Part shown: in pieces, positions 653 to 908 of the stretch
Layout of the letters: each line of letters opens with the position of its first letter
Position numbering within the stretch: position 1 is the first letter of the stretch
From: a virus
UHGV virus genome: UHGV-0259249
Strand: one strand, 5' to 3'
Length of the DNA: 22,970 nucleotides
Translations under genes and position numbers: made by a program
The notes under the pieces: generated by a model
The model's database searches: none
What the model was told of the DNA's origin: nothing
The model's input: only the letters and a program-made list of their open reading frames with translations

Positions 653-696
653 TTGACATTGATTTTTATTGAAAAAATATCTTATCTCGTTAATAT
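653..696 (+). promoter_or_regulatory. candidate sigma70 promoter(s) for the tRNA pair within an AT-rich upstream region
   Basis: TTGACA at 653-658; TTGAAA at 669-674 followed 16 nt later by TAATAT at 691-696 and a GC-rich discriminator (cacccgg). AT-rich tract 590-700 could act as an UP element. Pattern match only. Confidence 0.3.
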
Positions 697-754
697 TCTC
701 ACCCGGTTCCGAGGGGGTATTGCTGGGGCATTTTATTTTTCTTGAGGAACCATT

Positions 755-830
755 GCCGACTTAGCTCAGTAGGTAGAGCAACTGACTTGTAATCAGTAGG
801 TCACCAGTTCGATTCCGGTAGTCGGCACCA
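755..830 (+). tRNA. tRNA-Thr (anticodon UGU)
   Basis: 76-nt cloverleaf: acceptor stem GCCGACT/AGTCGGC, D-arm AGCTCAGTAGGTAGAGC, anticodon stem CTGAC/GTCAG (note: corrected from ACTGA/TCAGT reading; loop CTTGTAA carries anticodon TGT), T-arm GGTTCGATTCC, encoded 3' CCA. Essentially the enterobacterial thrU-type sequence as I recall it. Confidence 0.9.
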
Positions 831-833
831 TAT

Positions 834-908
834 GCGGGTATCGTATAATGGCTATTACCTCAGCCTTCCAAGCTGATGATGCGGGTTCGATTCCCGCTAC
901 CCGCTCCA
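834..908 (+). tRNA. tRNA-Gly (anticodon UCC)
   Basis: 75-nt cloverleaf: acceptor GCGGGTA/TACCCGC, anticodon stem CAGC/GCTG with loop CTTCCAA (anticodon TCC), T-arm GGTTCGATTCC, encoded CCA. Near-identical to host glyT-type tRNA with one compensatory acceptor-stem pair change. Only 3 nt separate it from the tRNA-Thr. Confidence 0.9.

Follow-up and report, generated by a model that had tools for sequence, protein, structure and literature searches.

We analyzed a 22,970-bp stretch of DNA from the UHGV virus genome UHGV-0259249 (hereafter the window), in which genes for tRNA-Thr(UGU) and tRNA-Gly(UCC) lie almost end to end. Our analysis suggests, with a probability of about 0.6, that these genes belong to a self-contained stable-RNA unit on the late-gene strand, composed of a promoter (669-696), a leader hairpin (705-751), tRNA-Thr, the trinucleotide TAT, tRNA-Gly, a structured RNA of ~300 nt (934-1225) and two terminators (1273-1350), which would be placed between the Q region of a prophage and its lysis genes. 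We favor this reading because the promoter is kept in position among related lineages, there is no room for a promoter directly in front of the structured RNA, this RNA was found behind a tRNA in all contexts sampled, and a terminator follows it in every lineage. All window features listed here are on the + strand, and those of the proposed unit are listed below.

669-696, + strand: sigma-70-type promoter candidate, -35 TTGAAA (669-674), 16-nt spacer, -10 TAATAT (691-696); consensus scan and conservation
705-751, + strand: putative 5' leader hairpin GGTTCC-GA-GGG...CTT-GA-GGAACC, ending 3 nt before tRNA-Thr; comparative
755-830, + strand: tRNA-Thr(UGU) with encoded CCA; ARAGORN, Rfam 73.8 bits, 76/76 identical to K-12 thrU
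831-833, + strand: TAT spacer, the thrU-glyT fusion junction; sequence, TAT in 119/123 public fused pairs
834-908, + strand: tRNA-Gly(UCC) with encoded CCA, U6:A67 allele; ARAGORN, Rfam 65.6 bits, 73/75 identical to K-12 glyT
934-1029, + strand: trailer RNA domain A, long-range helix GCACUG/CAGUGC around short hairpins; RNAalifold, 22 sequences
1034-1116, + strand: trailer RNA domain B, long and irregular stem-loop rich in G:U pairs, which form on the + strand only; covariation
1127-1225, + strand: trailer RNA domain C, five-way junction, distantly STnc100-like; covariation, sub-threshold match to Rfam RF02076
1273-1304, + strand: intrinsic terminator 1, AGACCGC...GCGGTTT and T-run; scan
1323-1350, + strand: intrinsic terminator 2, GGCTCGC...GCGGGCC and T-run; scan

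The tRNA pair and its relation to the host thrU operon

ARAGORN detected exactly two tRNA genes in the window. Both are complete and have an encoded CCA end (828-830 for tRNA-Thr and 906-908 for tRNA-Gly), with 3 nt between them, as described in an earlier note on this DNA. Their matches to the Rfam tRNA model RF00005 (gathering score 29) span the full model, positions 1-71 of 71, and since the scores are far above the gathering score over this entire length, the two genes are not pseudo-tRNAs. The identity elements of tRNA-Thr are G1:C72, C2:G71, G35 and U36, and those of tRNA-Gly are G1:C72, C2:G71, G3:C70, C35, C36 and U73. As read from the sequence, both window tRNAs carry synthetase identity elements, which are GCC...GGC and the anticodon TGT in tRNA-Thr, and GCG...CGC, the discriminator T and the anticodon TCC in tRNA-Gly.

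The same note had described the tRNAs as near-exact copies of host thrU and glyT without the intervening tyrosine tRNA, and our comparison with the thrU-tyrU-glyT-thrT-tufB operon of E. coli K-12 bears this out. The likeness is that of the mature tRNAs. tRNA-Gly differs from glyT by two changes, C6->T and G66->A, at opposing positions of the acceptor stem, so that a C:G pair is replaced with U:A; this compensatory change (6:67) falls at no known identity position. In contrast, the host operon has 209 nt, including tyrU, between thrU and glyT, where the phage pair has the 3-nt TAT; the window lacks tyrU, the 116-nt spacer, thrT and tufB as well as the promoter and leader of the host, and the pair is found instead behind a predicted phage promoter. 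Outside the mature tRNAs, no similarity of the window to the K-12 operon or to either host flank was detected. The TAT corresponds to the first base after the CCA of host thrU followed by the two bases that precede glyT, as a clean deletion would leave them, with 3 nt being thin evidence for such an event. The pair is a host-derived fused thrU-glyT cassette, and with an exact host copy and one clean fusion junction it represents a clear case of tRNA capture by a phage.

In a query over complete E. coli genomes, places matching the pair numbered 6,579 in 5,421 genomes, with a median of 1 and up to 6 per genome; in the median genome, the single matching place is the host thrU-glyT operon itself.

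Predicted promoter and leader hairpin

The claim of the earlier note that the pair has its own promoter holds in part. The TTGACA that it had picked (653-658) has no acceptable -10 partner in our scan, but a conserved promoter-like site lies directly upstream of the tRNAs. The scan returned two pairs in this region, TTGAAA-17-TATATT (616-644) and TTGAAA-16-TAATAT (669-696), and comparison across lineages decides in favor of the latter. All 34 distinct lineages of the two-tRNA, hairpin-bearing type have a sigma-70-like promoter with a 16-nt spacer that matches at least 8 of the 12 consensus positions (at least 9 of 12 in 30 of them), and its -10 ends 6-8 nt before the hairpin in 30/34. This holds while the hexamers themselves vary between lineages (TTGAAA, TTGCGA, TTGAAT and TTGCTC; TAATAT, TATCAT and TATTAT). 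Arrays with four tRNAs have TTGCAR-17-TATTAT-CCTGCGCCC, and their first tRNA starts straight after it. From this conservation we conclude that the tRNAs probably have a dedicated promoter, located downstream of the pR'-tR' region, from which the unit would start at ~703. The possibility that this promoter is the late promoter pR' was rejected as the main reading. In relatives, Q is followed within 60-90 nt by a strong terminator and only then by the tRNA promoter, and in the record of the Shiga toxin phage 933W pR' stands at the end of Q, with another promoter, pT, in front of the tRNAs.

The leader hairpin is a comparative prediction. The pattern GGTTCY-GA-(G-rich)...(Y-rich)-GA-RGAACC, followed by ~3 nt and a tRNA, was found in 23 distinct versions, with two GA dinucleotides facing each other. 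The last pair of helix 1 covaries (C:G, U:A, U:G), and helix 2 differs in sequence among lineages. Given that the predicted start lies 1-4 nt before the hairpin, the latter would be the 5'-terminal stem-loop of the precursor.

A conserved structured RNA and terminators follow the pair

Similarity with relatives runs on past tRNA-Gly in ~54 comparisons, at 72-85% identity over 200-330 nt. An alignment of 22-25 diverse versions of this trailer (22 of them used for RNAalifold) yields a consensus of 74 pairs in 10 helices (934-1225), arranged in three domains. In this alignment 97.7% of cells are paired, compared with 39-53% when partners are slid; 14 pairs show double-sided change, compared with 0-5 in the control, and the covariation score is 0.236, compared with 0.05-0.09. 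None of 500 shuffles matched the observed values. Folding is also stronger on the + strand (-90.3 kcal/mol, z = -5.0) than on the - strand (-62.3 kcal/mol, z = -2.9). The closing helix of domain A was seen in all lineages, a single G:U variant included, and domain B comprises 27 pairs, with 98.5% of cells paired and double-sided change in three pairs. A terminator of the form ACCGCC-loop-GGCGGT-T-run is found 37-50 nt past domain C in 24 of 25 lineages and at 87 nt in the remaining one; in the window, terminator 1 is of this form.

The structured trailer begins 26 nt after the CCA of tRNA-Gly, which leaves no room for a normal promoter between them. For this reason, the trailer was rejected as a lambda 6S-like leader of a pR' placed after the tRNAs; a further reason is that the tRNAs with this trailer stand behind antiterminators of three different families. 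A coding function was likewise rejected, as the open reading frames (ORFs) at 953-1234 and 1256-1468 have no Pfam match and none of the trailer's ORFs keeps its frame or length across lineages. Across the whole window, Rfam at the gathering threshold reported the two tRNAs and nothing in the trailer, and the miRNA, GcvB and tmRNA-like matches that appear at lax E-values were discarded as hairpin or terminator artefacts.

The trailer RNA is carried by 54 of 97 distinct trailers, in both two-tRNA and four-tRNA arrays. We found it in 434 of 5,426 complete E. coli genomes (~8%), at 571 places, 39 of them on plasmids, and it is almost never annotated; in the phage collection it is present in only two records. 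Four contexts sampled across the hit range (OkiPb01706, ZYB62, a plasmid fragment, and E. coli W, where the tRNAs are at 1,515,026-1,515,179 and the RNA reaches to ~1,515,900) have it directly behind a tRNA, with different antiterminator families upstream and lysis genes downstream. Its domains are modular: short-form trailers have A and B, ~60 nt and the same terminator with domain C absent, and in one genome TerB and DUF3927 genes lie between A and B and a C-like copy. No counterpart of domains A and B was found in Rfam or elsewhere among the known RNAs compared. The conserved promoter at 669-696, the leader hairpin and the trailer RNA with its terminators were not part of the earlier note.

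A different trailer, without the A/B/C RNA, is present in ~40 fused pairs (e.g., L014 and L031), in which the first 60 nt after tRNA-Gly are GTTAGAGTCTTTCAGTCTGCGATGATGGGAAATCCCGGAGTGACTGAAAGAC. This alternative trailer starts with a long inverted repeat, GTCTTTCAGTC...GACTGAAAGAC, and a motif similar to the repeat, GGTCTTTCAG, is also found between Q and the tRNA promoter.

Distribution of the pair and variation of the arrays

On its own, the pair is an ordinary, widespread and already annotated prophage tRNA cassette, a spread and annotation that the earlier note had missed; RefSeq annotates it in close relatives, and named phages with the annotated pair include SerU-LTIIb, phi467, vB_EcoS-683R6, vB_EcoM-606R7, vB_EcoS-689R5, PhiR47_1 and JLK-2012. 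What our analysis adds is the conservation of promoter and leader, the single origin of the fusion, the derivatives with new anticodons, and the linked RNA with its terminators. A scan of IMG/VR for the Thr-Gly junction pattern matched at least 120 contigs. The spacer is TAT in 119 of 123 fused pairs from public contigs and TAAT or TGT in the rest, which indicates a single origin of the fusion. Among species representatives, the junction was found in E. coli (three copies), Shigella flexneri (three), E. ruysiae, Citrobacter braakii and Enterobacter hormaechei, with two further matches in a Photobacterium sagamiensis contig (longer spacer) and a 423-bp Corallococcus exercitus contig. With respect to the acceptor stem, ~55 phage tRNA-Gly genes have the host-like C:G, ~39 have U:A, and two are U:G intermediates. 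The pair forms an island of 96-98% identity within flanks that are unrelated or 72-85% identical, suggesting strong selection on the tRNAs.

Two array types predominate among 134 copies, with 60 of the two-tRNA type present in the window and ~70 with four tRNAs in the order tRNA(CAU, ileZ-like), Lys(UUU) or Arg(UCU), Thr, Gly. The second slot of the four-tRNA arrays (before Thr; e.g., L012, L011, L055, L009 and L105) is occupied by one scaffold whose anticodon differs between contigs: Lys UUU in 38, Arg UCU in 18, and also Leu UAA, 'Phe AAA' and one odd loop that ARAGORN leaves unnamed. The anticodon thus appears to vary unusually fast at this slot.

The scaffolds of the pair itself have been retargeted as well. 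The Thr scaffold has become Arg(UCU) in SerU-LTIIb (L002:1122-1194) and Lys(UUU) in two contigs (L075 and L119, third tRNA), the Gly scaffold has become Arg(UCU) in strain ZYB62 (L141:3206-3281), and a degenerate Gly-like 'tRNA-OTHER' is present on a plasmid fragment flanked by insertion sequences (L139:3401-3473). Such retargeted scaffolds (Arg UCU, Lys UUU) offer a natural series for the study of how phages reshape decoding.

Proposed expression of the unit and codon usage

We propose that in the lysogen the unit's own promoter would make a precursor whose terminators stop transcription before the lysis genes, and that after induction Q-modified polymerase coming from the upstream pR' would read through the unit. 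RNase P would cut the 5' ends of tRNA-Thr and tRNA-Gly, and 3' trimming would free the tRNAs and the trailer RNA. The tRNAs would thereby provide a second gene copy of isoacceptors that have a single matching locus, the thrU-glyT operon, in most E. coli genomes; these isoacceptors read ACA/ACG and GGA/GGG, which occur in the phage genes at about twice the host rate. Transcription from this promoter, co-transcription of tRNAs and RNA, their processing and a benefit for translation are what we infer from the arrangement.

To assess codon demand, we compared 27 window genes (6,553 codons) with a K-12 sample. ACA occurs at 10.4 per 1000 codons in the window and at 4.5 in the K-12 sample (2.3-fold, odds ratio (OR) 2.24, p = 1.6e-5), and GGA at 17.7 and 6.9, respectively (2.6-fold, OR 2.86, p = 1.7e-12). 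Usage of ACG and GGG, also readable by these tRNAs, is likewise raised in the window genes. The enrichment that the earlier note had expected, as support for late-gene translation, is therefore present, but it is specific neither to these tRNAs nor to late genes. The early genes of a relative have ACA at 17.8 and ATA at 18.9 per 1000, and this ACA value means that the demand is not confined to late genes. The one codon that stands out is GGA, ~1.9 times as frequent as in lambda. Overall, codon supply is a plausible but unproven role for the tRNAs.

Several points weigh against the proposed unit or against the benefit ascribed to it. The late genes of lambda, which has no tRNAs, use ACA at 10.1 and GGA at 9.5 per 1000, so that ACA equals the window value; AGA, AGG, CGG and ATA are enriched 2-8 fold in the window genes without a matching phage tRNA; and the host codon sample consists of just 37 genes (14,646 codons). 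Promoter, transcript limits and processing are all predicted, and Q and pR' lie outside the window, their place being deduced from relatives. Of all versions of the leader hairpin, that of the window is the weakest, notably in helix 2, and folding of 700-935 (z = 0.13) gave another minimum-energy structure and did not recover the hairpin. In addition, a perfect TATAAT occurs inside the D-arm of tRNA-Gly (844-849), and TCGGCA stands 16 nt before it (10/12 in the scan). This stretch of the tRNA is common to host glyT, and the match is probably incidental, although a transcription start there would give a trailer RNA without tRNAs.

A more far-reaching version of the proposal, which we offer tentatively and hold to be less likely to be right than wrong, is that the leader, the tRNA pair and the trailer form one constitutive prophage RNA operon, in which domains A and B (934-1116) would be a new class of tRNA-linked RNA with a function of its own, and they, in place of codon supply, would be the reason why the cassette is kept. 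Such a function might lie in tRNA processing or stability, in regulation of the lysis cassette, or in manipulation of the host or its defenses.

Alternative explanations

The best surviving alternative, although an unlikely one, is that the tRNAs act in counter-defense and not to correct codon bias, standing in for host tRNAs that tRNA-targeting defense or competitor systems (anticodon nucleases, PARIS-like or retron effectors, colicins) cut or deplete. A role of this kind has been proposed and demonstrated for other phage tRNAs (PMC10264068, PMC11464382, PMC11555353), and it would suit the extension of the array with tRNA-Lys(UUU) or tRNA-Arg(UCU) in relatives and the repeated retargeting of both scaffolds, by which the decoding set changes quickly. 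However, tRNA-Thr is identical to host thrU, and tRNA-Gly differs only at 6:67 and not in the anticodon loop, where escape mutations have been reported (PMC10264068). With this near-identity, the phage copies should be as cleavable as those of the host and could help only through extra supply. Moreover, we found no report of tRNA-Thr(UGU) or tRNA-Gly(UCC) as targets, and a term search of the PARIS paper returned none.

Slightly less probable is that the tRNAs serve mainly as processing punctuation, being kept so that RNase P and 3' trimming release and delimit the linked RNA as the functional cargo, a pattern known from other RNAs linked to tRNAs. The distance from a tRNA to the trailer RNA is always 25-30 nt, even where the tRNA is the retargeted Gly of ZYB62 or the degenerate 'tRNA-OTHER' of the plasmid fragment, and its presence in more than half of the distinct trailers (54/97), behind both array types, points in the same direction. 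This explanation nevertheless does not account for an anticodon and tRNA body that are 96-100% identical to functional host tRNAs, nor for the ~40 fused pairs that have the other trailer without the RNA, and the STnc100 RNA of 933W is not beside a tRNA.

We consider it improbable, and somewhat more so than the two preceding explanations, that the pair is a neutral passenger, a patch of homology for prophage exchange or for gene conversion with host thrU/glyT that brings no benefit through expression. A recombination role had been raised in the earlier note, and the boundaries agree with it: the two ends of the pair are often the exact limits of homology to relatives, which starts at the 5' end of tRNA-Thr in 77 comparisons and stops at the 3' end of tRNA-Gly in 63, as expected of a mosaic joint. 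The 99.4% identity of E24377A and DS26-1 ends at the end of tRNA-Gly, and SerU-LTIIb has two pairs around a duplicated holin segment. Yet sharp boundaries are equally expected from purifying selection on a small gene in fast-changing flanks. Furthermore, a functional-looking promoter is present in every lineage despite sequence change, the changes in the tRNA stem are compensatory with a U:G intermediate, and retargeting keeps the cloverleaf, patterns that indicate selection on expressed tRNAs.

Finally, that the tRNAs mark a host tRNA locus entered by a phage or island is very improbable: many phages do integrate into tRNA genes, and a survey of prophage small RNAs (sRNAs) read nearby tRNA matches in this way (bioRxiv 10.64898/2026.05.13.724894), but here the two genes are intact and lack the host flanks, tyrU and thrT, the same TAT junction recurs in >120 viral contigs and several species, and the pair lies between methylase and lysis genes, far from the prophage ends, in strain WGI31CT ~25 kb inside a prophage that is inserted in ydfJ. 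This phage context and interior position mean that the tRNAs belong to the phage and do not mark an attachment site, in agreement with the earlier note. If the proposed stable-RNA unit is correct, tRNA matches near such sRNAs would here be phage genes of the same unit and not scars, which changes how these loci should be annotated and tested.

Comparison with known systems

The closest parallel to the proposed unit is the pT-ileZ-argN-argO array of phage 933W, which has the same strand and place, after Q, pR' and terminators and before cargo and lysis genes. The 933W record lists pR' at the end of Q, qut, terminators, and then 'pT; putative tRNA promoter' before ileZ-argN-argO. As proposed for the window, a putative sigma-70 promoter of its own thus directly precedes the first tRNA, and the array is followed by a terminator; window positions 1314-1357, with terminator 2, are 82% identical to the terminator annotated after argO. 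The four-tRNA relatives of the window share with 933W the pT form and an ileZ-like first tRNA. In contrast, the tRNAs of 933W are Ile2 and Arg, whereas those of the window are Thr-UGU and Gly-UCC from the host thrU operon, and 933W has toxin cargo with a structured RNA after stx2B, whereas the window has no toxin, a leader hairpin, and its RNA directly after the tRNAs. A literature search on ileZ, argN and argO returned nothing usable. Upstream of its tRNA promoter, 933W also retains a remnant of the last ~35 methylase codons (L142:1473-1585), 85% identical to window positions 494-540, which suggests that the methylase-tRNA arrangement is ancestral and that the gene was lost in 933W.

Domain C resembles STnc100, which has been reported as a prophage sRNA downstream of stx2 (PMC12370729) and which a 2026 preprint relates to the Hfq-bound PasD sRNAs of enteropathogenic E. 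coli prophages, located beside TerB and holin-lysozyme genes (bioRxiv 10.64898/2026.05.13.724894). At a lax threshold, the STnc100 model RF02076 (gathering score 47 bits) aligns over its full length (model positions 1-206) to domain C and the terminator with 16.9 bits, and in relatives it matches the same place in 8/8 cases with 19-38 bits. As these scores are below 47, we describe domain C as a distant relative of STnc100 and not as a member of the family. Conversely, a covariance model built solely from the domain C alignment, without STnc100 sequences (R1), gave one match in the 933W segment, inside the true STnc100 (17.5 bits, E ~0.003, the E-values of this model being rough); that STnc100 itself scores 207.7 bits and lies 75 nt after stx2B.

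The likeness of domain C to STnc100 consists of the order of helices, a near-identical CGGGAGGCACCCG hairpin and the terminator at the end, and both the STnc100/PasD RNAs and the window RNA occupy intergenic sites of lambdoid prophages, near TerB and in the interval from Q to the holin-lysozyme genes. The window RNA differs in having ~190 extra structured nt upstream (domains A and B), and it is linked to tRNAs, whereas the STnc100 of 933W follows stx2B. The cassette is therefore joined physically, and probably also transcriptionally, to a covariation-supported RNA that extends the poorly understood STnc100/PasD group. Two contigs have a second STnc100-like element (L007:2664-2863 and L063:2237-2435; 35-38 bits), ~230-430 nt upstream of tRNA-Thr, so that some prophages carry STnc100-like RNAs on both sides of the tRNA pair.

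Among other RNAs found near tRNAs, GOLLD and ROOL are structured non-coding RNAs of unknown function that are often prophage-borne and located beside tRNA genes (PMC5737381). Their Rfam models gave no match in the window at E-values up to 10, and they are 580-800 nt long, compared with ~300 nt for the window RNA, which is enterobacterial.

Phage T4 has tRNA-Thr(UGU) and tRNA-Gly(UCC) among its eight tRNAs, in diverged, phage-specific form and in a virulent phage. The two anticodons are thus the same, reading codons that end in A and are uncommon in E. coli genes, but the window copies are near-exact host tRNAs in a temperate phage.

Phage context of the tRNA pair

The genes on both sides of the pair are of phage origin, as had been claimed, with a methylase upstream and lysis genes downstream. 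Those adjacent to the proposed unit are listed below.

2-589, + strand: 3' part of a DNA methyltransferase gene that starts before the window; Pfam PF01555 N6_N4_Mtase, E = 5e-26
1483-1908, + strand: TerB-family gene; Pfam PF05099 and relatives' annotation
1905-2057, + strand: DUF3927 gene; Pfam PF13064 and relatives' annotation
2147-2539, + strand: holin; Pfam PF16931 and relatives' annotation
2529-2807, + strand: holin; Pfam PF05449 and relatives' annotation
2809-3354, + strand: GH108 endolysin; Pfam PF05838 and PF09374, and relatives' annotation

In relatives, the upstream gene is annotated as a DNA-methyltransferase. Beyond the lysis genes, the window encodes the small and large terminase, the portal, a ClpP-capsid fusion and a contractile tail (tail sheath). 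We take it to be from a lambdoid prophage of E. coli whose regulatory and lysis module is related to those of phiP27 and 933W. Among complete E. coli genomes, none is an exact match over the full window; the aforementioned WGI31CT comes closest (90% covered, 95.9% identity), and an IMG/VR contig is 99.8% identical to the window over 1-3355.

The gene order in relatives is RusA, Q (Pfam PF06323), a 65-aa ORF, methylase, tRNAs and lysis genes, with Q located 1.77 kb upstream of the array and a terminator after Q; where the methylase insert is absent, Q ends 330-370 nt before the array. When the methylase, Q and holin context was searched by tblastn, many contigs were left unclassified, their Q and lysis genes belonging to other families. 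The tRNA slot is variable, with tRNA-Arg/Ile and stx2e in phiP27, a toxin-antitoxin pair in one phage, and two tRNA pairs in SerU-LTIIb. Relatives have stx2e or LT-IIb nearby, and no toxin gene was found next to the tRNA pair of the window.

Between the endolysin and small terminase genes (window positions 3355-4930), ~1.5 kb contain only short ORFs without a Pfam match. In the corresponding slot of relatives, RefSeq annotates 3-5 hypothetical proteins, and cargo such as LT-IIb or a lipopolysaccharide heptose-phosphate phosphatase is found. The early region of the WGI31CT prophage (L004:4733-7277) carries hokD and an annotated 'ABC-three component system', a candidate defense module.

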